Source: Tricharina praecox | Taxonomy: Eukaryota | Direction: 5' to 3' | NCBI RefSeq assembly: GCF_024521635.1 | Contig: NW_026250403.1 | Coordinates: 2,790,001-2,854,000 of the forward strand | Length of the DNA: 64,000 nt | Shown: piece by piece, positions 13,027 to 55,523 of the stretch | Layout of the letters: the number at the start of each line of letters is the position of its first letter | Position numbering within the stretch: the stretch's first letter is position 1 | Notes under the pieces: generated by a model | Seen by the model: only the letters and a program-made list of their open reading frames with translations | Database searches by the model: none | What the model was told of the DNA's origin: nothing | Program-made: the position numbers and the translations under genes

Positions 13027-14238
13027 CATCACTCTACTACGGTACTCTACTCGCATCCATCTGTCCTATCGATATAGATTGCGGGTCGTCCGTCCCGTGT
13101 GCTTCTTTACTTGCTTCCGTAGGGTAGAGTAGAGTACATGGAACACGGTGGGCTTTCTTTCTTAGTCCTTCGGCGGTTGCATCTCACACGTCCTCACTCC
13201 CGAGCGTGCGAACGGTCAGAGGGGAAGGGAAGCCCGCCGACTTGTCAGCGCCGGTATGTATGTAACAAGTAGTCTCACGCAGACGGGTAGTGGGGGGAGG
13301 GTAGTGGTGGTGTTGGTGGTGGCCGTAGTGGCAGTGGCAGTGGTATCTAGTGGTAGTGGAGGTGGGCGTTGGATTTCTGGGTTTGATGGTTGCGCTGCTG
13401 CCAGCTGCCAGCTGCTGCTCCTCGTGCTTCTGCTTCTGCTTCTGCTTCTGCTTCATGCTCTCCAGACTTTTTTTCCCCGTAGTCTGTACCTGCCTTTGTG
13501 CTTTGGTGGATTTCGTTCGTTTGTTTGTGTGTTTGTTACTCGAACTCGAACTCGGCATCGGCATCGGCGGTAGGTATTTAGGCAGACAGACAGGCAGCCA
13601 GCAGCATACTCTAGCCAATCTCTGTGTGCGTGCTTGCTTGCTCGCTTTCTTGCTTGCTTACCGGTAAAAATCACAATACTCCGGGTCCTCTGCTGCTACA
13701 GGAAGGACTCGTGGAGAGAGGCGAAGTAGAAGCCGGAGCAGAAGCCGGAGGGATGGGAGCAGACAGACGGGCAGGGCGAAGCAGCCGCTAGAGCGAAGGG
13801 ACACGGGGAAAGAGGTGATGGTAACCGGAGCGAGAAAAGTCACCATAGAATCCGCCTGAAGCTTCGGGTATATCCAGTGTCCCATCGAAAGTCAAAAATC
13901 ACCTCCAGTCAGCCCGCTCGCCCCCAATTCCGCCGCCCCACCTCCCCCGCCACTCCGCCGGCCGCCCCCCCCCCCCCCCCCCCCCCCGCCCGTCGAATCC
14001 TCCCCCTTCGCTGCCCCTCCCGCCCTTGTAAAACGAAAAGGGCAGAAGAAGAAGACGAAGAAGAAAAGGAAGTAGATGTAGGAGAAGAAGAAGAAGACGA
14101 GCGGGATTGAGAAGAAGAAGAAGAAGAAGACATTGCTGTTGGATAGCCGTTATTTATCTCTCTTTACTTATTTCATTTTCGACTGCTCGTCCTGCTCTCT
14201 CTCCGCAGCCGCTTTCTTCTGCTCGTCTCCACCGCCCA

Positions 14239-14269
<31 letters not shown>

Positions 14270-16014
14270 TCTCCCAATACCGTACCGTACCATACCACCA
14301 CCACTGCCACTACCACCACCTCCACCACCTTCTCCTCCTCTTCCTCTTCCTCCTCCTCCTCCACCACCTCCTTCGCCCACTACCACCTCCTCCACCACCC
14401 TCCCATCTCGATCCCTGTCCCGCCCAGCCATCCACCAACCACAGCCGGTCCAGCCTCTTCGTCTCCCTCCTCCTTTTCTTCTCCCCACACCCCCAAAAAA
14501 GTCCCATCGTCCAACTTCCTGTTGTTGTGTGCGCTACTCCCTGCAAGTCGCCCCGACCCGCAGCAGCGACTTCAAAGTCTACATTCGCTCCGCCTTTCCT
14601 CCTCCATCTTCTCGTTCAACCTCCTCAACCACCAACTATCAACATCACCACCACCTCCACTACCACCACCACCGCCATCAACACCACCGCCCCTCCCCGT
14701 CGTCCGTGCTCACAGCCTCTCCACACGACACACCCTCTCTCTCCTCTCCAAAACACCTCTCCCTTCCCCACCCAAAAAGAAGGTGCTTCTCTTCCGCCAT
14801 CCATTCATCCAACCTCCCCCCGTCGGCCATTAGTTTGTCGCCAATTCTGCCCCCCCTCCCAACCCCCCAATTCCCCACCACCCCCCGGCAGTCTCCACCA
14901 CAGACAGACGACAACACACGCCTTCTCGAATATCTGCATCTCTCGCTCTAGTACGACAGGCTCTCATCTCGGCAGCGCAGCCCGTACTCACTCAGGATCA
15001 GCGCTCAATCGACCGTCGGCACCTATCATTGGGCCAGTCCTGCTACGGGAAGAAAAAGATTTCGACTCGGTTCACCCCGGGAAGAACGCAGAGCAGGAAA
15101 GAAAAGAAGGTGTGCACTTGAACGACGATCAACGAGGAAACGACGCGAAACGACATTTAACGAACCCCGACTCACCACCCCCCCAATTGGCGCAACCAGC
15201 CATTTGGAAATCTGCAGCCAAAAAAGCCATAATAGGGTACCAGCATATCACGACGTGAAACGAAGCAACGATCAAATAGTTTTTTGTGCGGAGTCAAAAA
15301 GTTCAGAAAAGTTGCCCCCCTCATCATCGGTTTTTTTTTACTTTTCTCAACTCGGTGTCGTCTTCTGCGTCCTAGCATATTCTCGTACACAATACCCTCG
15401 ACATTTGCATTCCCCTCCCCCCACCCTCCCCCCCGTTCATCAGTTCGGGTCTCGCATCTTCCCCAGAGCTAGAATTGCTTGAGTGGTGGTTCCGGTCTCT
15501 GATTTCGACGGACGTGTGATTTTCGCTGCGATTTTTTGCCCTTTCTGCTGCCTTGCAGCCGCATAAACGGCCAACTATCCGGTCGGGACGCGCCGTCAAT
15601 CTCTGCATTGTGCTGCTGCAAGTAGTGTTCTCCACCCGCCATCCTCGGTCTCTGCATTTAGGACGACTTGCGGCCATCTCCCAACCGTCCGGACCTGCAT
15701 CCCCTCGCAACACTACACCACTCTCTCTGTCGGAAGGCCATACTTAGACGACCCTCAATTACCAGTGGAATTGGGCGGCCCCTTCGTTGAAGAAATCTCA
15801 TCGAAGTCTTTCTACATCACCCCTTCCAAACAATAAGAGAAGCACAGAAATCGATTTCTTTGCTTCCCACACCCCAACCTTCACAATAGCAGCGCTACTT
15901 CACGCGACCATCAGCAAGCTGGAGCTACCGTCCCTCGCATCGGTTCAGACACGAGCCCCCACCGACGCCTACCCGTCTTGGTCTGGCTACAACGCCCATT
16001 ACGCCAAAGGGGGC

Positions 16015-18654
16015 ATGTCCAGTGACAAGCTCCCATCTGCGTTGTTCTCACCTTTGGCTAGCCAACAACAACAACAGCAGCACCATCACGCATCTTCGCC
16101 GAGAGGACTAAGCAGTTCAATCCTTAACGGCTCGACGTACCCCAACAAGAAGGATTCCACCCAAGTCCTCCCCAGCCCCTCTCAATCACAGAACGGAGCC
16201 CCGCAGTACTCCACCTCCAACAATCAATTCGCCTACGGAAACGAAGGAACCGGCTTCATGAATACACAAAGCAATTCGTCGTACGGTGCGCTAGACTACG
16301 GCCACCAGCACCATCTCTCGCAGGGACAGCCGCCTACTCCCCAGACGGCGACCTCGGGCGGCATGGGCAGCTTTCCTCCGCAACCGTCACTGCTACAACC
16401 CACATACCACCAGCCGAGCCATGGGTTCCCGCAGTTCTTCCCAGGCTCGAATTCGCCGGCGAACCAGCCTCCGATGGGCGTGCATCCCCAACAGCCCATG
16501 CTCCCGCTGCCGCAGACCACCGCGCTGAACACAAACCACTCCCCGTTAAGCGCCGTCTCGCAAGGAGGCCCGCAAACCCCTCAATCCGCCACAACAGGTG
16601 GTTACAGCAATCATTCATTTGATGCGACCGGCCAGATCGCGCCCCCGGGAATGAAACCCCGTGTAGCGGCAACACTCTGGGAAGATGAAGGCAGCCTATG
16701 CTTTCAGGTCGAAGCTCGAGGTGTTTGTGTAGCCAGACGAGAGGGTAAGAATGACAGTCTTGATAACGATTATTATTATTATTATCATTATTTGAAAATC
16801 TTGGTCATCCCGCTAACGGTTCTGTTTCGTCGCAAAAAACAGATAATGCCATGATCAATGGCACCAAACTTCTCAACGTGGCGGGAATGACCCGTGGTAG
16901 ACGTGATGGTATCCTGAAGAGCGAGAAAGTGAGACATGTCGTAAAGATCGGTCCGATGCATCTGAAGGGCGTATGGTGCGGCATTCCTCCACCAAAATCC
17001 CGATAGTCTCGTGGGCTTGGACTAATGTTTCGATAGGATTCCATTTGAGCGTGCATTGGACTTTGCGAACAAGGAGAAGATCACAGAGCTCCTATATCCG
17101 CTGTTCGTCCACAACATTGGTGCTTTCCTCTACCACCCAACAAACACCCACCGAACAAACGCGGTCATGGCTGCAGCCGAGCGTAGGAGAGCGGACAGCA
17201 CCGTGTTGACCCAAAGTCAAGCCCTCAACCAAGGCCAATTGCAAAGACGGGCGACAACCGATATGATTCCCTCATCACAGGCGCCGCAGATGCACCATCA
17301 AGGCATGCATAACCCCATGCACCACCAGTCCCTTCCCCCCAATCTTTCTCAGCCTCGTCCCGAGTTGCAGAGGAGCATGTCGTTCCCCACCCCCCCTTCT
17401 AGTGCGTCGAGTGTGATGGGAGGCGGCCCGGATTCTTCGTTCTGGAGCGGGAACATGGTGCCGCAAGGAAACAATGGTCCGTTAGCCATCGACACGGTCA
17501 TGAACAGTGCTCGTTCGATGCCGACAACCCCTGCGACAACCCCGCCGGGAGGCATCCAGCAGTTGCAATACCCTCCCCCACCGTCATCCTTGTATCCACC
17601 CCAGCAAGGAAACATGGGCCAGCAGAACATTGCGCAGCAGAACATGCAGAGGTTTAACCAGCCCCTACCCCAGCCGCAGTACATGAACCAGAATAGGGAC
17701 CAGAACAACATGGGACCCCCGACATCAAGGGGACCGCCGCCAACCTTGTCAAGGCCGGCTTCGCGACAGGATGATGGACATGGGCATGGAAAGGAGGAAG
17801 GTGCTGAGGAGCAGAATGGATTGGCAACCGAAGGTGAGGATCACGGAGTCCAGGGAGTTCATGGAGTAGTGTCCGCCGAGAATGAAGCTGAACATCATCC
17901 AGAGGAATATACGACCCATGAGACCAATTATGCCAACGGTCACCGACCCGTCTACTACCCTCCTCTTCAAACAGAGCACACGCCGCATCTGTCGCCGGAG
18001 ATGAATGGTTCCCCAGGACAGGGCCCATCCACGCCAGCACGTGCGTACGGTGCTCCGAACGCCAATGTTCCGCGCACGGTTGATGGTGCAAGTGGAGCCA
18101 CTCCGCGAACCACCACCACCCCGCAGCAGCAATGGGTCCAGAACGGCAGTGGATACTCGACTCCGCCACGATCCAACTCCGCCAGTGGAAATGCCATACG
18201 CCAGCCTCCGCAAAGAAACGTCTACCAGCTCGTTGGCGGTGACACTCCTGCCGACCAGTCGGATCCCAGCGCTGCTCCCGGCGCGTCCGATGGCACTTAC
18301 GCTACCCAGGCCGGACTCAGCGGTGTGCCGATGCCTTCCCAGACGCCTCCGCAGAGCTACGTTGTCAACGGAATCACCACGCCGTCGTCGTCCAACAAGC
18401 GCGTGCGCGACATGGATGATGACGAGGAGCACAACTCGCGACCGTCGAGCCGGGATCACGATGACCGAGCTGGTGCCGATGCCGATGCTGCGATTGGTGG
18501 AATGAAGAGGCGCAAGACTGTAGGCCGTGAGGGTGCACCGGCAGTTGCTCCCGCGGCCGGCATGGCAGCTGGCAGCTTCGACAGGGCAGCTGATGGTCGG
18601 CTTAACCGCACACGATCAGCCGTCAACCCGGGCAGAGTTGGAGGAAGAAGATAA
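16015..18654 (+). CDS. stuA: APSES-domain developmental transcription factor StuA/Asm-1; join(16015..16744,16843..16975,17037..18654)
   Basis: Spliced translation gives the APSES domain [102 protein letters not shown], plus StuA motifs [25 protein letters not shown] and KRRKT. Both introns are GT..AG with CTAAC/CTAAT branch sites. Start codon uncertain (see findings). Confidence 0.97.
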
Positions 18655-23420: not shown

Positions 23421-24841
23421 TTACACGGGTTCGCCCTCAGCATGCGAGGATTTTTCCATCTCCTTGAGCAGGCTCTGATACAACACGAGCATAATTCCGC
23501 TCTGCACGCTGGTCCACACGGCGCGGGGGCCGACGCCACGGAACCAGCCTGCTAGTCCCTCCGTGCGGTAGATTAACCGGAGGCCCATGAATACGCTGGA
23601 GGTGTTGAGTTTGAGGGCGCCGGCTCTCGGCGGGGGCGCTGTTGACGGAGAGCCGATCGAGGTTGGGCGGGGCGTTGTTGTGTGGAAGCCGCGGGATTGG
23701 CTCTTGAGCGTGGCGGCGGGGGTGGATGGTGGGGTGGTGGTGCGCACTTGCGTTTGCAATCGGGTTTTGACGACGTCTACATATGCGTACGTGACTCAAT
23801 TAGCCCAGTTTCCGGCAGTGAAAGAAGGAGAAATAGAAGAGAGCGTACCAAGAGGACAGGTGATGATTCCCGCCAACCCACCCGCCATCGCACCTGTACC
23901 GATCTCAAATCCGAGTCCGATATCGTTTCCAGGACCGCAATACCGCTTAGCCCACTTCCGGAACTGTTCGTAGAACGCAAACTGCAGAGCGGAGAACGGA
24001 AGGTCTCGCATGATCGTCGCTTTGTACCCGTAGAAAAGTGCAGCCGGGCCCTCGACCCTAACAATAGTCTTTGCGGCGTCCAGAGTGCTACGGTAATTGT
24101 ACCCACTCTTGAAATAGGGATTATTATACCTTCCCTGGAGCTGTAGCCGTGTCTTGAGGACCTCGGACGGCACGTAAACAAACGATGCAAAAAGATCACC
24201 GATGAAGCCACCAGCGAGGTACGCCAGACTGTCGGGACATCCGGAATCGATCAGGTAGCGTTTCGAGTACTCGTACGTCCCAAAGAAGATGACAGTTCCC
24301 GGCAACGAGCCCATGAAAGCCGGCGTGACCCCCGAGTACAACCCGCGAAACAACCCTTCCTCCATAAAGATAGTCGCATAGGCCTTTGGTGTGGTGGCGT
24401 ATTTGATAGCCGTGGGCGCGCCCTGCTGCCGTGTCTTGACTGTGTCGAGCGAGTGCATCAGCATGTCGCCTGTGCTTCCACCGAGGCCGCCTGCAATCAT
24501 CGCCTGTGTGGGGTGTCAGTTCAATTGACCACTTGTCGTCGTCGAGGGAGGAGAAAAAAATGTGCGGGGTCAGTCAGTCGGTGGGTGGGACAACAGACAT
24601 GCAAGTACGGCGGTCTTCCCTCGCGTTCCTCAACCTCCGCAGGTCGCGCTGCAGCAACCGGCGTTCTATTGTCCATCGGGATATCATAATCTCTACCGAT
24701 GATCCCCAATTGGTGTACGGAGGTACTGGTGACGGCGGTGGTGTTGTTGTTGGTGGGGCGTACCGATACGGAGGAGTTGTCGCCGCTGTCGTTGCTGCTG
24801 CCGCCGGAGAACAGGTTGCTTATCCGGGAGCCTAGGGACAT
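23421..24841 (-). CDS. MME1: Mitochondrial carrier family protein, MME1/YMR166C-like (Mg2+ exporter); complement(join(23421..23776,23849..24503,24599..24841))
   Basis: Three carrier signature motifs (HSLDTVKTRQQG, VPSEVLKTRLQLQG, CPLDVVKTRLQ) and the segment GRYNNPYFKSGYNY...GYKATIMRDLPFSALQFAFYE characteristic of the yeast YMR166C/Mme1 subfamily; canonical introns. Confidence 0.9.
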
Positions 24842-32990: not shown

Positions 32991-33633
32991 TTTCTCTCTC
33001 TTTCTCTCTGCATCTAGAACGCATCAATTGGCATCGCCCCGTGTGAAGTTTAACCTAACCGTCCGCACTCGAGGCCCACCGACATCAGCAGGAGTAAGAA
33101 GCATGTATGATATGTACCGGTAGCATCAGATGCGCCATCTTCTCGCGGGACCGTGGCCACGCACGCAACTACTGTACATACATACAGCGAGGCGTCGTCT
33201 TTTCTCCTTCTCTTTGCGCTTTTGTATTTGTTCTCGAAGCCTTGCGCCTGGATTGAACCAGACGAACAACTGCAAGACCCTGAAGAATAATATCAGAAAT
33301 AATCAAAAGTAATGCGGATTTTCGGTATTTGTGCTGGATTTACCCTGTCTGCTCCACAACCAGACCATACACCCTTTCCCTTTTTCCCCCTTCCCCTAAA
33401 GAGTAGTGACGGGGCGCGGATTCAACTTGATCTCTCTCTCGCTCTCTCTCTTTCTCTCTTTCTGACTGAGCGAAGGATCCTACATACACCTGTGAGAGGT
33501 ACCATACCAGACTCTATGCTCCCCCCAGCCCCTCTAAACACGAGAGTTGCTTGAGCTCTTCCTGGAGTCTCTCTCTTCCTCCTACTGCCTGCCTGTCTGC
33601 CTGCCTGCCTACTCCTCCTCTTCCCTCCTCCTC

Positions 33634-33636
<3 letters not shown>

Positions 33637-33668
<32 letters not shown>

Positions 33669-33750
33669 ACCCACTGCTGCTGCTGCTGCTGCTGCTGCCA
33701 CTACTACTACTACCTACTACTACTACTACTACTACTATTACTACTACTAC
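33637..33750. repeat. Compound microsatellite (CA)n-(CTG)n-(TAC)n
   Basis: Three adjacent simple repeats upstream of som1. Confidence 0.9.
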
Positions 33751-34982
33751 AGCCCCCCAAGTAACCACCCACCAACTACTACCTTACCAACCCGCACCAC
33801 CAACCCGCCGCTCCCCCCCCCCCATCCCCCGTCCCCCGTCCGTTCACCACCCCCCACTCCTTCCGCCCCCAGGGCCCTTTTCTCCGAACCACAGACAGAC
33901 GAACAAGCACAGGAAAAAAGAACGCCAGAAGAAGAAGAAGAACATCAGGAAGAAGAAAAAGAAGAACACGAAGAAGAAAGAAGTGAAGATCCAGAGCTGG
34001 AACAAGAAGAAGAAGTGACCCGGCGATTATCCTGCCACCTTCCACTATCCCTTCGCCTAGTCTGTCGCCTGCTCTATACCCAGCTCGTTTCTCTCTTGAG
34101 AAATCAATATCCAGTACATACAGAGTGTCCCCCATACATACTTCCTCCGCTGTATGAGTACCTGCCTGCTGGTCTCCCATACGAACTACGACTCCCAGAA
34201 ACGACCTTCCACACTGCCCTTCCTCACGTTGCCTTCTGCTTCTCAGGCAGCAACCAGCAACCACACACCCCATCGCAAACCTTCCCCCCTCCGCAGCAAC
34301 TACCACAACCCACCCAACCACACCCAAAACTAAAACCAACCACCCGCCATAACTATCCCTCCACTCACACTCCCCTCCCCCCCGGCAACCCTACTCTTCC
34401 ACCGACCGCGCGGGCGAACTCCCACCTACTCCCACCCCTCGGTCGCTTCAAGCTCGCCAACCCCCTCGGCATTCTCAACCGGTTATTCTGGACGTCTGCT
34501 CATCCGTTTCTTGACGCTCCATCGCGACCGGTTCCACCAAGTACCCCCCTCCGTCGGTCGATCGCTTCAATCATCTAATCCGTCCCGACCCTGCCGACTT
34601 ACACGCTCCCTCCCAACTATACCGCCCAAAAGTAAAAAAAAAACGCACCTTCGTTGTCGGTTCGGTGGCGAAAACTGGCTAACTAAACAGTCCTCTCGCC
34701 GAACTCGCGTGCTCCTTTCCGCCAGGACCCTTCGTGGTGTAGCAGCTGCTTACTTCGCGCGACGTTACCGTGCGGTTGCCGCCTGTCCACGTTTCTTTCC
34801 CTCGCTGGGATAGGCTCAATTTGCATCCGATCAACGCCTGCATCTGGGTCCTCTGCCTCCTTGTCCTCCTCTTTCTCCGAGCAGCAGTCGCTTGCCGTTC
34901 ACATCGAGGGCGGCAAACTCGAAATCACGGGCGCCACAGGCGTCGGCTACGTTATCAGTTCGAATTTCCTCTCTCGGTCACC

Positions 34983-37845
34983 ATGAGCCAACCGGATCAG
35001 AAACCTCCACAAACTGGCCCGAACATGAACATGAACCTAAACAATATCGGGGGGGTCGTCGGCGGAGCACCAGGCATGGACCACGGCGCGGCTCGCGGTA
35101 ATACAGGCGCCGGTTTCGACGGACGACAAATGCTGAATACATACATTTACGACTATTTTTGCAAGAACGATATGTTCGACTGCGCGAACGCGTTATTGAA
35201 GGCGCCGGATGCGGAAGTCCAGGTGGACGCCAACTTTCGACCCAGTCCATCGCGTAGGCCGCAAAAACACGAAAATGATGGCAATGTCATGAACGGCATC
35301 GACGAAGAACCGATGGACGGTGACGGTCAAAGGCAAGACGACGGCGACGAGGCCAAAAACATCAAAGATCTACCACCAGCAAAGGTGCCTACATCTATTT
35401 CAGGGTCATTCTTACTGGAGTGGTGGTGTTGCTTTATGGATATCTATTGGGCGCGCACCAAGGGCAACGCATCCATTGCGGCAAACGCCTATGTGAATCA
35501 GACGCAGGTTTGTGATCCAAAGCTGGGGAGTGAGGGGAGATGAGGTGGGAGGGAAGGGGGCGTACTTGCAGGATATTCGGATTAACACGATGGTCAGACC
35601 CAACAACGGTTTCGGAACGAGCAATTCATGCGGATGAACCCGAACAACCAGGCAGCTCTCATGGGCCAGCAGATAAACTATCCCGCTCGGATGATGCCCG
35701 GAGGGATAAATGGTGTGCACGCTGGCCAGGAAGGGACGGGCAGTCCTGGCGACATGGCGCATAAACCGGGTCAACAAGGGCAGCTACAGCGCTCTGTGTT
35801 GCAGAAAATGACTGCGGCGGGGAGGTAATTGGAATCTTAAATCCTTCGTGCAGTACATGAATGTCGATCTAACGAATGGGGTTTCGCCCGATGCAGAGGA
35901 CCACACCAGATGACGCCCCTCGGTCGCCCACAACTGATGCAGCACATGGCCAGCCGGGATGAAATCAATGAGATGAACGGGCAACAAAGACCTCAATCAC
36001 CGGCGGCTGCAGTTGCAGCTGCGTCGCCTGGCAACAAGCGAGTACGCTTAGAAAATGGACAATATGAGCAAGTCGGGAATGGAAGAGGCGGTACACCCCA
36101 AGGCGTTCCCCCAGGCGCCGCGGCACAGAGCGCCACTGTCAATGCGGCCCAGCAGATGTTGATCGCGAACGGCATTAACCCCAACACACTGTCCGCGAAC
36201 CAGTTTGCGGCCTTTCAAGGTCAGCCTCCTCATTCTCAGCAGCGTTCGATGCAGATGTATGCTCAAAACATGGCTGCAGCTACGGGCAAGAACATCGCGC
36301 AGTTGCAGGGTGGGCCCAAGGGAATGCCGCAGAATTCAGGACAAGCAGGATCACCAATGATGCCGCAGACATCAGAAGGCGGCCTTGGTGGAAGCATGAA
36401 TGAATTCTACGCTGCTCCTGGCGGTGGAATGCGCGCTGGTGGTTTGGGTGGAGCCGGAAACCATGCTCTGCAGGACTATCAGATGCAGCTGATGCTGCTT
36501 GAGCAACAAAACAAGAAGAGGTTGATGATGGCGAGGCAGGAGCAGGACAACATTGCCACCCATAACGATGCGAACCGGCCCGGCTATCACCCGAGCATGT
36601 CACCCAACAGCCGAGCGGTGCCCTCACCAGGGCCCGGTGGGAAAGCTAGTGGCATGGCGGGAACGCCCAAGATGCCGAATCAAGTTCCTGGCTCACCACT
36701 ACCCGACGGCCAGATGGGCGGGCGGTTGCAACAAGGGAACTCGCCCGCAGCTGCGGGTTTCAACGGTCCGATGGCGGAAGGCAACCATCCAATGATGTAC
36801 AGTCAGATGGCCAACAACGGTGCTGGTGTACCCAACGGTGTAGGCATGATGCGACCGCCTGGCTTCGAGGGTCAGATGCAGCCGGGGATGGCCGCGCAGA
36901 TGAACCCGAACATGCGGGCGCAACAGGCTGGTCGAGGGCAGCCGGCAGGTGGCATGTGGCACCCGCAGCAGCAGCAGATGCAGCAGCAGCAACAACAAGC
37001 ACAGCAGCAAGCGCAGCAGCAAGCACAGCAGCAAGCGCAGCAGCAAGCGCAGCAGCAAGCGCAGCAGCAAGCACAGCAGCAGGCGCAGCAACAAGCGCAG
37101 CAGCAGCCACAGTCCCAGCAGCCCAGCCAGCAGCAGCCCAACCAGCCTCCCCAGCAAGCCGGTACACCGCAGCCTCGCCAGCAGACCCTACCACACACGG
37201 CTATGCCTCCTCCTCAAGCACCTGCCAATCCTCCCGGTGCAGGCCGACCAGCGCCGGCTTCTCCGCAGGTGAACAACCAGCCTCCCACCCCTACCCAGAC
37301 GAACAAGGCAAATCCGAAGGGAAAGAACGCCCCGCAAACCAAAAAGGTATCATTGCGTGTTTGTTCGTTTTGTCTGTTGAGCGCTAATTCTAAAATAGCA
37401 GCGACCAAAGAAGGGCGCCGCTCCGCCCACCGCGCCAAGCGTCGTTACGCCAACGACATCAGAGCCGCCGACACCGACAACACCGACGATCCCGCAACAC
37501 CCTCACTCGTTCAACGGTCCCAACAACGGTCGACCAAATTTCACATCGGGCGGGCCAAATCCATCGGGAAACACTTCTGCTGGACAGTCTGTACAACAGC
37601 CCACACCGAACCCCGCGCCTGCGGCGCCACCAGTACCGAACGACCCGATCCAGCCCGCTTCCACTTTTGCTGGCATAGACATGAATGTGGATTTCTCGGG
37701 AGACTTTGGCAACGGCGAATCGGATCTTTTGGACAACTTCGATTTTGATTCATTCTTGAATACCACGGAGGATAGCTCTGGCGGACTTGGGTTTGGGGAT
37801 AACCTGCAATGGGCAGACGGTGGTGAGGTTGCAGGAGACTCGTAA
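34983..37845 (+). CDS. som1: LisH/LUFS-domain transcriptional regulator Som1/SomA (Flo8/Mss11 family); join(34983..35507,35598..35824,35897..37346,37399..37845)
   Basis: LisH/LUFS segment LNTYIYDYFCKNDMFDCANALL...SFLLEWWCCFMDIYW; conserved NHALQDYQMQLMLLEQQNKKRLMMARQEQ; NLS-like SPGNKRVRL; C-terminal LDNFDFDSFL. Three canonical introns restore one frame. Confidence 0.93.
36966..37106 (+). repeat. Coding 12-bp tandem repeat encoding polyQ/(QQQA)n in Som1
   Basis: Repeated CAGCAGCAAGCR units translating to QQQQMQQQQQQAQQQAQQQA... Confidence 0.9.
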
Positions 37846-47154: not shown

Positions 47155-48334
47155 TTAAAACGTAGTAGCTCTCGCAATGGTTCCCTTCCTCTCGTCGAGG
47201 TCCCTTTGACGGTGGCTATTCAACTCGGCATCTTTCCAATCCCCCTCACGCCTGACTTCCACCAACCCCGCCTTCTCGAGCCTCTTGCGCTTCACGCCCC
47301 AGTCGATCAAGATGGGCAGAAACCGCCAGATATCAAACTGCGGCCAGAGACAGTCGATGAACACGATCTCGGTATCCTTATGGCACTGCCACAGCATGAA
47401 ATCGCTCAGCCTGCGCACGCCACTAGTGCGCACGACGAGGTCGAGCGGAGGACACCCAGCGGTGAACAGGTGGTCTTCGAGCGTTTGCTGCGTGATGGAC
47501 TCGAAATCGGTCAGGCCGGGCGTCGCGGTCTTTTCCGACGACGTCGAGGAGTCGCTGAGCCCCGGGGAGCCGGGCGCTGCCGCGTGCACGGACGTGCTGA
47601 GCGCTACTACGTCCCGGATCGATGAGGCGATCTCGTGCCGCGAGGTGTACGGGAAGCACACGTTCAGGATCGAGCTGTCGCTGTGTCAGCGCGCACTTTT
47701 CCCCCCTCCTACCCTTCACGCAAGACGAGGGCGCTGTGTATGTACATACCGGTCGTTGTTTTTCGTCAACTCGACGGCCTCGTCTATCACCTCCAAGACA
47801 TCGGGGCGCACCAGTTCCCGCTCGCCGAGGATCCGCAGACTGGCACCGTACCGCTCCAGCAGATCCCCGTGTTGACACAGCTGCAGCAGCTTGATCTTGG
47901 CAATCTCCATGAGCGCATTCACCTCGTGCATCGGCCGCTTGAAGTTCTCTATGCTGAACGCGTAGACCGTTACCACTTTCACGCCGGACTTGTAGCACAC
48001 TTCGAGAATCTATCCTCCCTCCCTCCCGAGGCTCAGTTAACATGCGAACGAACGCAAGGGGGAGGGGGACGGGAAGAAGTGGGGCGGAAAAGGAAAAGGA
48101 GAAACCAACCTTCGCGAGAGCTTCAAAGCCCATATTGTGTCCCTCGGCGGTTTCGATGTGGTTCTTGCGCGCGAACCGGCGGTTGCCGTCCATGACGAAG
48201 GCGATGTGCTGCGGCACGGGCCCCTGACGCACAGAGTGGATAAAGAGCTCCTTGAGCTGTGTAGACGCCCATTCGATCGGCGGGCTGGAAAGCATCCAGC
48301 GGCGCATTCGCGCGGTGGGGAGATCGGACGGCAT
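47155..48334 (-). CDS. RER2: cis-prenyltransferase / dehydrodolichyl diphosphate synthase; complement(join(47155..47674,47750..48009,48110..48334))
   Basis: Signature motifs PQHIAFVMDGNRRFA, GHNMGFEAL, VTVYAFSIENFKRP, LNVCFPYTSR, LDLVVRTSGVRRLSDFMLWQ; two canonical introns. Confidence 0.95.
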
Positions 48335-50083
48335 CGTGCGAGGAGGAGTTGTGTTGTGCTGTGCTGCTGTGTGTGTGTGTGTGTGTGTTGGGGAGCGGAG
48401 GTGGTGGTGATGGTGGTGATGGTGGTGATGGTGGTGGTGGTCAGGACAGCTATACACTTTTGTAAAGTATGTGAGCTGCGGACTTGATGTAGGTTGGTGA
48501 TGGTGGTTTGAGGTGGTACCTACGGGGGAGTGTACACGAGTCGTGCTACGAACGCCAAGGGAGGCGCTGTTCATACATCACATGAAAAACTTCTGACGGA
48601 ACTCTACGACGGAAGTGGCTTTGCGATTCACTACGTGTCCACGAATCATGGTTGAAGAGAAGGTTGTTCACGGTGATGCAAAAGTCAATCAAGCACGGAT
48701 TTATTGTCTATGTGTCTAGATAAAGTGCGTGTTGACACGTCTTGCCACCTGGTCGCAACGTCTCCATGTGAAGTGCAATTGCAGGGCCACTCTCAACAGG
48801 GCTGACGGGCACTTTCAGGACCGTGTCAGCCGAGCCCCGGAGCCGGTCTCGGTGCAGAGAGTGGCATACATCACAGCCGAGCATTGCCAAATGCCATGGT
48901 GCCTCGTGAAGAACTTGAGGAAAATCTGCAAAGCTTCTCAACACGTCAGTGACAGGCCTTTCGACAAACAGCGCGCGTGGGAATTGGGTATTAAAAGAGC
49001 AAGCGGTGAAGAGTCAGGGTATCAAAACTAAGGAACATCAAGACGACATTGCTGCCGTTAAGATCGAGGAATTCCATTTTCTCTAGTTTGATTTCATCAT
49101 AAAAGCCGGGGGAGGAAGGTGACGTGAAGTTTGGAGTTGTGCTGTGCTGCCGGAGGAGGAGTGTATCATACCTTTGACGGGTTGGGTTCCCTAGCCGAAC
49201 GGACATCGTCAGCCATTCGTGGCCATCATGCGGTGAAACGCAGGTGCTGGGTGGTGAGAAGGAGAAAAGGTCGTGAAGTCCGAAAGGCAAATGAAGGGGA
49301 AGAAGCCGGAAGAAACAGTCACTGCGGAAAAAGTGCAAGAAAAGCCCCACCGATCCATGGCCACTAACTAACCCGGAACCGGCCGGTAGATGCCGCTGCT
49401 AAACTTAGCCCGGCCGAGTTGACTGTTGAACGGTAAACCCCACCCTGCGAGTACGAGCCGCAACCAGCCATGCTCTACCCCATGGCTGAGAGCATCCATC
49501 TCGGACTCGTGCTTTGCTGTCTTTGCGGCTGGGTCCTCAACACGGTACACGGTACATCTCTATCGGAAATCCCCACCGCAGCCGCAAATAGAATCCAAAA
49601 ATAAGCACCGAGAGTTCCCTCCACTGCCTCCAGTGTCCACTGTCCAGGAGTCCAGGTAGGCATACAGGTACCGTACCTTCTCCGCACTCACAACCCGAGG
49701 ACTGACTGAAGCCGCAGACCTCAAGTTCCCACTGGGTTACAACCTTTCTACCCACCATCAGCTGCGCCTGGCATCCCGCATCTCGTTCATTATTTTAGGC
49801 TCGCCCTATCAAGATGCTGGATCACAACAAGTCATTTCCAGCCTGGCCATGGGGCAGAGAAACAATCAAAACAAAAGAACAAAAAGAGCCTGCCTGCCTG
49901 TCGTTCTCTTCATTCTTTACGCCCCGTCGGAATGCCTAACCTTATTTACATTACACGCGAGACCGACGTTAAGGGGTCTGACAACAACAAGTGATATTCT
50001 AACCTGACGCCTTCCACTTTGTCTTTGTCTTCTACCTACTTCACTCAGGGCTCGGTCTGTCTCAAGAGCCCACGGTACCATAC

Positions 50084-51709: not shown

Positions 51710-54700
51710 ATGCGCCTCCAAGTCCATGTCTACCCCACCTCTGCTGCGCAGCAGTCACGGGCAGCCTGCAGCTTCCTCGAGATTGCAGCGCCCCACTTGA
51801 CTCTTGAGCAACTGAGTCTGTCGATCTGTCGACGGTACAGAAGGCTGTATCCACACCGCGCGTCGGTCCCCTCCACCCTTCCCCCCACCCGCTTCCATCT
51901 TCATCCCTGGCTAACGCCCGGGAAGAGAATTACAAATCCACAAACTCCAGGATAGCGAATGCAACGACCTGGACCTGTCGTACACAGTGTCGGATGTGTT
52001 CTCGGACAAGTCGGCAAACAAGGTCGATTCCGTCGTGCGCGTGATCCAGGCCAGCAACCTGCGCGAGTCGAGCATCCCGCCGGAGTCCGCGCTGCGACCG
52101 AACTCCTCATGGAAGAGTCACACTGCGTATAAGGGCTCGGTTCTGGGGCCGCTGGACGAGGAGGACCTACTCGACGAGCAGGAGCCGCATGAACAGCGCT
52201 CCAGTAAGAGGCAGAAACTGCAGGAGAAGGAGATGGTGGAGGACTCGTTGGAGGAACGCGATGAGCAGGATGGTCCTAATGGGGTGGGCGCGGAACGCTG
52301 GTTGGGAGACGATGAGGACGAGGCCGAGCATGATGATGACGATGATGACGATGATGACGATGATGACGATGATGACGATGATGAGCATTCGGTGCTGGAG
52401 GATACTTTTCTGCGGATGCATAGTCCTGAGCTGGGCGAAGGGATCAATGGGCTCGCATCGGCTAGGTTCTCACTACCCACCCCCGCCGGCGATGATATCG
52501 AGATCGTCAGTGCCTCACAAACGTTCGTTTCCTCCATGCAGCAATCGAACAGCATGAACGGTGGACCTCCAGCCGAGTTGGAGATCAAAGACGAAACCCA
52601 ATCATCACCTATGTTCCGACGCATAATGGATCCAGTGAGCGCCGGCATAGAATCTCAATCACTGCCGCCCCTGCCACAGATCGAAGTTCCCTCCTCGCAA
52701 TCGACAAACCGTTTACGCTACAGACCTTCTCCGGTCCCCGCGCAGTCTTCACGCCTCCACAGGAACTTCGCTTTCACCACCAGTAACGGGGCAAAACGGA
52801 AGGGCCGCGATATCTATGATTTCCCTTCCACCGACGACGATGTCGAAGAGAATGAAACCCCGCGTCCGCGTATAGGACGCGGAAAGAAGGTCAATAGTGC
52901 TAAGCCTACGAAAGCTGTTCCCGAATCACCGTCTGTGCAGCTGGAACACGAGCATCTCACCTCTAGCCAAAAGAAAACAGGTAATGGGAGCGCTCGCAAA
53001 GCGCGGATGAGAAGGCCGGCCGCGCAACTTGCTGAGGAGGATCATGTTGAGAAGGGGACAGCCGAGAGGGAGGAGACTGAAGCTATTGCTACCGCTGCCG
53101 CTGCCGCCGCCAAGGAACAGGAGCGCCAACAGAAGGAAGCAGCAGAGGCCAGACAGAGAGCTCTTCAAGCTGCCGAAGAGCGCGAGCGTCGGCAAAAAGC
53201 TGAGCAGGCGAGATTGGCGAAGGAGGAGGAGGAACGGCTTGCGAAAGAAGAGGCCGAGAAGGTGCGCCTGGCTAAAGAAGAGGCCGAGAAGCAACGTCTA
53301 GCGAAACAGAAGGACGAAGAGGCAAAACGGAAAGCCCAAGAGGAGGAGAAGGACCGTCTGGCGGCAGAGGCGGCTGCCGAGGAGGAACCCTTGGTGAAGG
53401 AGAAGGCCGAACAAGAACGTTTGGACCAAGAAAAGGAACGTCTTGCAAAAGAAAAGGCTGAAAAGGAACATTTGGCCAACGAGAAGCCTGCCGCGGAACC
53501 TGTTGCGGAAAGGAGGGCTGAGGACGGGCGATCAACGATAGAGAATGAAGAGCGGGAACGCCTAGAAAAGGAAAAGCAGGAAGCAGCCGAGGAGTCTGGA
53601 ACTGATGCCATAAAGAAGCTACAAAACGAGTTGAGGAAGAAGAAGGCTGCTGGGAAAAAGGAGAAGACTCCGAAGGCAAAGGACCGGAAGGCCAACGAGC
53701 TCGAAGAGCAGAAGGCGAAGGAGCTCGAAGAGCAGAAGGCCAAGAAGACGAAGGAGCTCGAAGAGCAGAAGGCCAAGAAGACGAAGGAGCGCGAGGAACA
53801 GAAGGCCAAGAAGACGCAGGAGCGAGAAGAACAGAAGGCCAAGAGGACAAAGGAGCTCGAAGAGCAGAAGGCTAAGAAGACAAAGGGGCTCGAAGAGCAG
53901 AAAACAAAAGAGACAGTTCAGAAAGCTAAGGATCACGAGCAGCAGAAAGCGAAGGGAAAACATGTGAAAGATGAAGTCACCCCAACAGCTACCAAGTCTG
54001 AAGCTATGACTGTCAAACCAGAAGTTACGGCAACGAAAAAGCGTGCTAGAAAGGACAGCCTGCCTACTGGGGATGGCAAGATATCTCCGGATGCGAAGGT
54101 CTCCAATAAGAAAGTACGGACGCATTCACCCGTAGCTGTACGCCAAAGCCAGTCATCTTCTACACCCTCAGCCGAACGAGATATGGGTCCTCCTCCAGTT
54201 CCGAACTCCGCCATGAAACGAAGCAACCTTAAGAAGGAGCTATCTTCCCAAGAGCCCCTGTCAGCCAGCAAAAAGAGAAATTCCGTTTCCTTTGCCGAAA
54301 ACATGCCCAGCAGTCAAGGGTTTCCTGGTTCCTCGGCTCCAACCATGAGCTCAACCCCTACTCCGATTGCTCGTCCCTTAAAGCGGACACCCATTGTATG
54401 TCCATTGCCCGCCGCAACCCCAATGTCCTCTATAAACCCTTCGCTCCGAACTGTCACACCAATTCTCCCTCCCGGCTCTGTCAGACCTTCTGAAAAGAAG
54501 GAGGTTGTGACAGCGAGAAAACCGCCGACCCACAAGCCCGAATCTAGTTCTGAATCGGAATCCGAATCAGGATCGGGCAGTGAATCTGAAAACGAGGCAG
54601 TTCCCAGGGCGTTGCTGTCAGCCAAAGTCGCCGCTCCTACTAAGCCAAAGGTAAGCAGAAAGCTGCTGGTGGTCGAATCCAACCTAAAGGCCTCCACCAA

Positions 54701-55523
54701 GAAGGCAAATACTCCTACAGCGGGCTCTGCACCGGTCCCAACAAATAACAACGGTTCCGATGTCGAAATGCAGGATGCTCCTCCTCCTTCCACCGCCCCA
54801 GTCTCTTTGAAAGCGACGAGACCAAAGACGCCCTCTGCTACCGCTAGGGTCTCACATGCTGCCCCGGTTGCCAAAAGTGCGCCTCACGTCGTTTCTAGTG
54901 ACTCGGAATCAGAAGACGACGACGAGATGAAGCCACCTCCGTCAGCGCAGATTTCCAAGTCCGAGCCGCCGCAGAGCTCGCAAGCCTCTAAGTTGGTTGG
55001 CGCCAAAAAGCCAGTGGCTGCCACTGTGGCGGATGACTCGGACTCGGGTTCAGACACCGGCTCAGAATCCGATGACCACGATGATGAACCGACTAGCACT
55101 AACAAGGCAGCTTCTGCGCTGAATTCCCTTCTTGGAAAAGCCAAATCCACCGCACAGTCGCTCGTCAAGTCGAAAGCGATTTCTCCAGCAATGACCAAGA
55201 AGCTCAGCTCCCTTGGAGACCTAGAGAGCCGAGTGAAGTTTGACGTCCGAGAAATTCACCCATCTCAACAGGTAACGCAGCAAGCATCGCAATCCACTCC
55301 AAGTTCCCAATCGACAGCCAAAAACGTCAACTCTGTAACGAAACGAGTCATCGAGCCGGAGTCGGAGTCGGAGTCTGGGTCGGAGTCGGAGTCAGCCTCA
55401 GATTCTGACAGTGATGCCGACTCAAAATCGAAGGCAGCGATCCCGGACCACAAGAAGGCTGGTTCCAACAAAAAGAAGCCGGCGGGTGCAATGGGATTCG
55501 GACGAATATTTTCGGGGGTATGA
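51710..55523 (+). CDS. Dnt1/Net1/Tof2-like nucleolar protein (Cdc14-binding-type N-terminal domain); join(51710..51861,51926..55523)
   Basis: Spliced N-terminus MRLQVHVYP...FLEI...LTLEQLSLSICRRYRRLYP...LQIHKLQDSECNDLDLSYTVSDVF fits the Net1/Tof2/Dnt1 N-terminal domain; then acidic tract, long E/K/A coiled coil, S/D/E blocks and a KKKP..MGFGRIF tail. Confidence 0.78.
53695..53910 (+). repeat. Coding 33-bp tandem repeat (KELEEQKAKKT)n
   Basis: About six imperfect copies of AAGGAGCTCGAAGAGCAGAAGGCCAAGAAGACG within the Dnt1-like CDS. Confidence 0.9.

Follow-up and report, generated by a model that had tools for sequence, protein, structure and literature searches.

A probable CUG-initiated N-terminal extension, deeply conserved, of the fungal developmental regulator StuA

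StuA (also called Asm-1 or Mstu1) plays a central part in controlling how filamentous fungi sporulate, develop sexually and produce secondary metabolites. In the stuA gene of Tricharina praecox we identified what is in all likelihood a deeply conserved N-terminal extension initiated at a CUG codon: a leaky CUG start would give a protein of 835 residues and the first AUG one of 803 residues. The gene lies in a 64,000-nucleotide stretch of contig NW_026250403.1, called the window hereafter, for which an earlier reading of the letters (the original prediction) had proposed a CUG-started StuA extension akin to that of cpc-1. The invariance of the codon, its frame, the dN/dS of the extension and RNA contigs in which the leader has no intron all speak for this proposal. 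Papers are cited by PMC number; the role of Aspergillus nidulans StuA as a developmental regulator is treated in PMC3749384.

Results

A CTG codon at the end of a long AUG-free leader

CTG 15919 lies on the forward strand in the context AGCAAG CTG G, with A at -3 and G at +4, and is in frame with the stuA ATG 32 codons downstream. The frame is open from 15748, i.e. 57 codons further 5'. The forward-strand gap between the ATGs at 14076 and 16015 (1939 nt) is the longest on either strand of the window, the next measuring 829 nt, and the nearest ATG upstream of the CTG is 1.84 kb away. The optimal context, the ATG-free leader, the coordinates and the peptide were all as originally predicted. The relevant features are listed below.

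14077-16014 (+): ATG-free stretch holding the stuA 5' leader (ATG listing and RNA contigs)
15745-15747 (+): nearest upstream in-frame stop, TAG (frame reading)
15886-15888 (+): ATA with A at -3 and G at +4, in frame, 11 codons before CTG 15919; possible second, family-restricted near-cognate start
15910-15918 (+): upstream initiation context ATCAGCAAG (ACCG-NN-AAR in other classes)
15919-15921 (+): conserved CUG, putative start codon of the 835-residue long form (75/76 loci, 42/42 clusters)
15919-16014 (+): 32-codon extension with motif 1, (M)[ED]LPS[IL]SxVx[TA]R, in its first 13 codons (alignment, pN/pS)
15919-16744 (+): coding exon 1, with the APSES domain from residue 248 (about 16660) (RNA contigs, spliced frame)
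16015-16017 (+): ATG1 (GGC ATG T), putative start of the 803-residue short form and start in 6/8 named NCBI Pezizales models
16024-16044 (+): motif 2, DKLPSAL (elsewhere D[KR]LP[SA]LxLP), retained in the ATG1 form (conservation)
16258-16260 (+): ATG2 (TTC ATG A, poor context), in frame, equal to the MN start annotated in other classes; its 722-residue form is doubtful here
16745-16842 (+): intron 1, 98 nt, GT-AG (joint in 4/4 RNA runs)
16843-16975 (+): coding exon 2, APSES/KilA-N (domain search, RNA contigs)
16976-17036 (+): intron 2, 61 nt, GT-AG (joint in 3/4 RNA runs)
17037-17833 (+): coding exon 3 (RNA contigs, spliced frame)
17834-17902 (+): intron 3, 69 nt, GT-AG, in frame (joint in 2/4 RNA runs)
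17903-18654 (+): coding exon 4 with TAA stop (spliced frame)

Only one of the 16 CTGs in 14860-16014, CTG 15919, has A at -3 and G at +4. Since the window contains AnnCTGG at a rate of about 0.9 per kb and strand, a single CTG in good context is not beyond chance, and the case rests on transcripts and relatives. ATG-free leaders were also seen upstream of the CTG in three Pezizales relatives (L001, L004 and L007), where they measure at least 1740, 1760 and 2241 nt.

The gene was assigned to stuA because its C-terminal part matches named StuA/Asm-1 proteins, the best being those of Geopyxis (67%) and Pyronema (65%); the named matches comprise StuA, Asm-1 and SOK2-type proteins, which places the product in the StuA/APSES family. 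Exon 2 alone scored below the cut-off against KilA-N (E 1.8e-4), a cut-off passed by P0178, the closest named full-length relative, and a PDB search using exon 3 gave no match. The spliced frame encodes 835, 803 and 722 residues when read from the CUG, ATG 16015 and ATG 16258, respectively.

RNA contigs cover 14405-14845 and, as a single unspliced piece, 14860-16743. Those of two runs, X1 and X2, skip all three introns and show no joint within 14860-16743; the runs are labelled as different studies, but their nearly equal depths (178.9 and 179.2) indicate that they are possibly not independent. As the contigs are colinear with the genome over this interval, at least 1059 nt of leader together with the extension are exonic and AUG-free in the dominant mRNA, with the reservation that assembled contigs drop rare splice forms and that coverage of leader and extension comes from X1 and X2, not from the two soil runs, X3 and X4. 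No leader intron linking an upstream ATG appeared in the RNA contigs, in which no joint lies upstream of 16743, so that the splicing of this segment to an upstream ATG exon, named in the original prediction as one of the threats to it, finds no support here. A branch-point consensus occurs only at 15498 in the interval 13400-16740.

Other features were noted elsewhere in the window. The second and third longest ATG gaps (638 and 829 nt, at 33517-34983 on the forward strand, with one ATG at 34154 between them) precede a gene starting at about 34984, whose first exon resembles that of a LisH-domain Flo8/Som1-type regulator. Pfam matches were found to a mitochondrial carrier (23799-24515, reverse strand), weakly to a cis-prenyltransferase (47426-48577, reverse strand) and to Cytokin_check_N (51915-55520, forward strand).

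The CUG is invariant as a codon

A metagenome scan seeded only with APSES peptides gave 308 confirmed stuA-like stretches, of which the best 80 were kept, the ranking being by resemblance to a query containing the extension. Adding the window locus and removing L011, L012, L044, L047 and L071, whose contigs end before the extension, left 76 usable loci. In a motif-free MAFFT protein alignment, the column of the window CTG holds CTG with A at -3 and G at +4 in 75/76 loci, a figure that is not a prevalence, because the ranking favoured extension-bearing loci. The ranking scored amino acids, however, and so cannot account for an invariant codon. CTG is present in 42/42 clusters formed at 93% nucleotide identity, which are related to each other, so that the counts are not independent trials. 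As a control, the share of CTG is 16-38% (6/38 to 13/38) at seven other conserved leucine columns and 26% (130/496) among all downstream leucine codons. The remaining locus, L062, is StuA-like, with a divergent N-terminus and no in-frame extension, which reflects either a loss or a paralogue. Assigned by best score against named proteins, the loci fall into Pezizomycetes, Eurotiomycetes, Leotiomycetes, Sordariomycete-like and less certain groups; these labels are rough, most so for the T-V-K group. The extension measures 105-139 codons outside Pezizales; neither this length nor the spread over several classes had been part of the original prediction. The conservation of CTG, frame and dN/dS in relatives that the original prediction had called for was thus found (75/76 loci, 42/42 clusters, pN/pS 0.16-0.51).

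Upstream of position -3, amino-acid conservation drops from 75-100% to 15-40%; an in-frame methionine upstream of the CTG occurs in 0/75 loci and an in-frame stop in 70/75, within 10 codons in 13 of them. In five loci, three of them in spliced contigs, the stop lies only 4 codons up, directly before ACC-GNN-AAR-CTG. Among the codons that follow these stops only CTG is both near-cognate and invariant, so translation of the extension would have to start there. Two hallmarks of cpc-1-type extensions are present: a near-cognate codon conserved as such in an A-3/G+4 context, and a reading frame that stays open 5' of the annotated AUG while the mRNA offers no AUG in that frame (0/75 loci, 0/21 spliced contigs). 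The T-x-K preceding the CTG outside Pezizales was ruled out as translated residues because the stops directly precede it and its middle triplet varies (GAA, GTA, GAT, GGA, GTG, GCA).

Two cases at the 5' end deserve mention. In P0162, a Penicillium hispanicum model, a methionine immediately precedes the LELPS motif; it stems either from a tiny exon of the gene prediction or from an AUG naturally present beside the CUG. The spliced loci L066 and L070, 99% identical downstream, have 5' ends that differ about 210 nt before the CTG; these are alternative first exons, neither of which brings an in-frame AUG.

Rival upstream starts

The extension could instead owe its translation to an AUG on an upstream exon that splicing joins in frame, the CTG being an ordinary leucine codon. 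Leader introns do occur in other classes, most of the 41 long database proteins matching the extension carry an AUG-started piece ahead of it, and five Penicillium models share with locus L032 one 12-residue mini-exon with plausible GT-AG signals. We nevertheless consider this reading highly improbable. Besides the unspliced T. praecox contigs and the distance of 1.84 kb from the CTG to the nearest ATG upstream, an in-frame stop was found in 17/21 spliced contigs. Beyond that mini-exon the annotated front pieces show no homology with one another, and four carry a partial label; NCBI models put unrelated N-termini, or none, ahead of motif 1, and mostly unrelated or partial-marked front ends in 41 matching proteins are the usual sign of a missed start. 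The AAG before the CTG was rejected as a 3' splice site since it is AAA or ACG in 6/42 clusters, and a start in an upstream exon leaves the invariance of the CTG unexplained. In the Penicillium-like L032, the ATG lies at -608 in the apparent mini-exon, with a donor at -572 and an acceptor near -82. The five Penicillium models splice the mini-exon ATG in frame, although its context would be poor and the CUG is retained; judging from these gene models, an AUG-started longer form may arise in Penicillium through such splicing.

A second rival retains non-AUG initiation but assigns the main upstream start in the family of T. praecox to another near-cognate codon, ATA 15886 or AAG 15916, the CUG being secondary. 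In the window, L001, L003 and L004, an isoleucine codon (ATA or ATT) with A at -3 and G at +4 precedes the CUG by exactly 11 codons, isoleucine at equal spacing is implied by P0003, P0007 and P0008, and pN/pS is 0.22 over codons -14 to -1 in the four closest sequences. With this constraint in the closest relatives, initiation may occur further 5' than the CUG here, but only four DNA sequences stand behind the comparison. Moreover, the isoleucine codon is absent from Tuber-like and Kalaharituber-like loci and from P0011, L014 has stops at -14 and -15, and the AAG position varies as described above. Either codon thus appears very unlikely to be the main start; ATA 15886, which the original prediction had passed over, could serve as an additional minor start, a possibility towards which we lean less than half-way. 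The ATA G at 15886-15889 also holds a U-A-G triplet which, speculatively, A-to-I editing would turn into one read as AUG. Such editing occurs in fruiting bodies of some ascomycetes. No A-to-G difference at 15886-15889 is listed in the RNA contigs, and L004 has ATT there.

The extension is under coding-type selection

In order to compare selection on the two sides of the CUG, pN/pS was calculated in four sets of sequences. It was 0.38 in the extension against 0.76 upstream (codons -40 to -15) for four close relatives, 0.51 against 0.82 for seven Pezizales, 0.16-0.25 against 0.92 for 15 Leotiomycete-like sequences and 0.21-0.33 against 0.81 for six others. Among 13 pairs, 28/39 indels downstream of the CUG are divisible by 3, compared with 6/39 upstream. 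The extension is under purifying selection of the coding type, a third feature of extensions of the cpc-1 kind. That the stretch is a conserved, untranslated DNA or RNA element deserves almost no credence: synonymous sites of the first 30-40 codons are indeed more conserved than those further down (pS 0.19 vs 0.49-0.60 and 0.47 vs 0.67-0.80) and ACCG at -9 to -6 is conserved at the nucleotide level, but low pN/pS and frame-keeping indels extend over up to 139 codons, no conserved RNA fold is seen (mean z +0.5 to +1.0 for windows that span the CUG or follow it directly), and the predicted fold has three pairs at -0.5 kcal/mol. On the same fold values, a downstream hairpin aiding the CUG was discarded, as was pairing of the CCG at -8 to -6 with the CUG region (3 bp, energetically negligible).

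Out-of-frame ATGs between the CUG and the first AUG are depleted, with 34 observed for 85.5 ± 6.4 expected; 0/500 codon shuffles were as low, the sequences being related and so not independent. This depletion is consistent with selection for unobstructed scanning towards the start of the short form. The few out-of-frame ATGs that the extension does contain belong mostly to an AUG-UGA start-stop located +76 to +97 nt from the CTG in 13 loci (L015, L016, L020-L022, L026, L027, L030, L031, L043, L049, L064 and L079), often followed by a second AUG, at a position that coincides with the in-frame ATG1 of Pezizales. It may damp the short form or just reflect Tyr-Val-Asn codons.

Downstream AUGs and the upstream context

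The first AUG of the Pezizales-like clusters follows the CUG at a distance of 30-45 codons and has a purine at -3 in 7/7, and the MN codon equivalent to ATG 16258 has U at -3 in the 5/5 that retain MN. In 31 of the other 35 clusters, 105-139 codons separate the CUG from the first AUG, which has a purine at -3 in 30 of them; the remaining four have a weak AUG at +29 or +30. Two close relatives (P0003 and P0004) retain the extension but have Thr or Pro in place of ATG1, which makes ATG 16015 dispensable there. From these contexts we infer two main products, a CUG form and a first-AUG form, arising by leaky scanning. The original prediction had envisaged three isoforms: those from the CUG and ATG 16015 are the better supported, while that from ATG 16258, which does equal the usually annotated MN start of other classes, is unlikely to be abundant here, given its U at -3 and its place behind ATG 16015. 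The Pezizales short form would lose motif 1 only; elsewhere the short form would lose both LP motifs and the SSPR and KTPSP stretches. Models from Orbilia, Drechslerella and Dactylellina (P0253, P0264, P0268 and P0272) have a short S-K-L-P-L-P motif after the Met, resembling motif 2 after ATG1.

Outside Pezizales, positions -9 to -6 read ACCG in 34/35 clusters and GCCG in one, and the next two bases vary; the window has ATCA. The mammalian NAT1 motif is GCCGCCRNN-XXX-G, with C-7 and G-6 as key positions (PMC13754004). The stuA context resembles it in having CCG at -8 to -6 in 35/35 non-Pezizales clusters and A at +5, so that other classes match at C-8, C-7 and G-6, but it differs in its consensus, ACCG-NN-AAR; the window, with ATCAGCAAG, matches the motif only at C-7, C-4, A-3 and G+4. 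ACCG-NN-AAR might act as an initiation enhancer.

Discussion

Comparison with known non-AUG systems

The closest parallel is cpc-1 (CPC1), whose near-cognate extensions in Pezizomycotina were described by Ivanov et al. (2017, PMC5487733). Both are fungal transcription factor mRNAs with an AUG-free in-frame extension and a conserved near-cognate codon with A-3/G+4, and in both automated gene models include the extension without resolving its start. Unlike cpc-1, where several near-cognates bypass uORF2 (ACG 98/100, CUG 73/100) and none is conserved in Tuber (PMC5487733), stuA has one invariant CUG that reaches Pezizales, with stops right before it in some lineages. The cpc-1 starts were tested in vitro (PMC5487733), whereas the stuA CUG is known here from sequence and RNA contigs. 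Nor does the stuA leader hold the uORF1-uORF2 pair of cpc-1/GCN4: there is no AUG in 14077-16014, and other classes have short uORFs with no such pair. The spliced Leotiomycete-like leaders L021, L023, L049, L056 and L064 share a short Met-His uORF of 5-9 codons, about 303-329 nt upstream of the CTG. This Met-His uORF may be the counterpart of a micro-ORF that Wu and Miller reportedly described in 1997 for the stuA leader of A. nidulans.

Two further systems are brought up in the discussion of PMC5487733. Podospora anserina IDI-4 is likewise a fungal transcription factor with a proposed conserved CUG start, but it is a bZIP protein in which the CUG is proposed to replace the AUG, whereas stuA retains a downstream AUG and signs of a maintained short form. 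In C/EBP, the LAP activator and the LIP repressor are N-terminally different forms of a developmental transcription factor, made from one mRNA and sharing a DNA-binding domain, as would be the StuA forms; C/EBP is however an animal bZIP with demonstrated isoform functions, those of StuA being hypothetical. The main text of PMC5487733 yielded no mention of stuA or asm-1. Our literature search, with key older papers outside its reach, found no report of a non-AUG start for StuA. Wei and co-workers are said to have published in 2013 a list of near-cognate codons conserved in N. crassa leaders; asm-1 could be among them.

Possible function of the LP motifs

Motif 1 would form the extreme N-terminus of the long form, with motif 2 about 30 residues later, and both LP motifs are conserved. 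Our best guess, held tentatively and by analogy, is that they are co-repressor docking sites, a role for which the original prediction had named LPS[IL]-type motifs as candidates. The guess is prompted by the yeast APSES proteins Phd1 and Sok2, which recruit Tup1-Cyc8: co-precipitation links Phd1 to Tup1-Ssn6, and Tup1 binding at IME1 requires both Sok2 and Phd1 (PMC3084262, PMC7210989). It is also prompted by the N-terminal domain of alpha2, which binds the Tup1 WD40 repeats (PMC10163088). Phd1 and Sok2 are relatives of StuA, but the available text of PMC3084262 and PMC7210989 maps no binding motif in them, and our literature search found no paper linking an LP[SP][IL] motif with Tup1. Complex prediction for the 44-residue N-terminus and the Tup1 WD40 scored 0.01; because the WD40 region of T. 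praecox Tup1 was supplied as three chains, each from a single exon, and lacked its last blade piece, this score speaks neither for nor against binding. A search with the 44-residue peptide against cluster representatives returned one true relative and four repeat proteins. T. praecox has Tup1-like and Ssn6-like genes, L084 and L100 (G000 contigs C72 and C50), both multi-exon.

Proposed mechanism and significance

We propose that ribosomes scan the long AUG-free stuA leader and that a fraction would initiate at the CUG in its near-optimal context, giving the 835-residue StuA that begins M-E-L-P-S-L. The remaining ribosomes would leak to the first AUG, which is ATG 16015 (803 residues) here and, in most other classes, the MN AUG 105-139 codons downstream. 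One mRNA would thereby supply two APSES factors, one long and one short, that share their DNA-binding domain, in a ratio expected to track start-codon stringency. A bolder scenario seems improbable as a whole: that the CUG form is the ancestral full StuA of Pezizomycotina; that M-[ED]-L-P-S-I is a Tup1/Ssn6 docking site; that stringency (eIF1, eIF5, nutrient stress) switches between a long form that represses and a short form whose output differs, in the manner of LAP and LIP; that ACCG-NN-AAR is a fungal CUG enhancer parallel to the mammalian NAT1 motif; and that the Pezizales AUG moved up, cutting between the LP motifs.

To the family as a whole the window contributes an early-branching member, from Pezizales, and direct mRNA structure. 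The annotated StuA protein very probably begins downstream of its most conserved N-terminal part. Should the CUG start prove real, 30-45 residues are absent from gene models and AUG-based constructs in Pezizales and 105-139 in other classes, among them the best-conserved region outside the DNA-binding domain, and tagging, over-expression and domain studies would have addressed the short form. The CUG would then also offer a single-codon handle on whether the choice of translation start steers fungal development.
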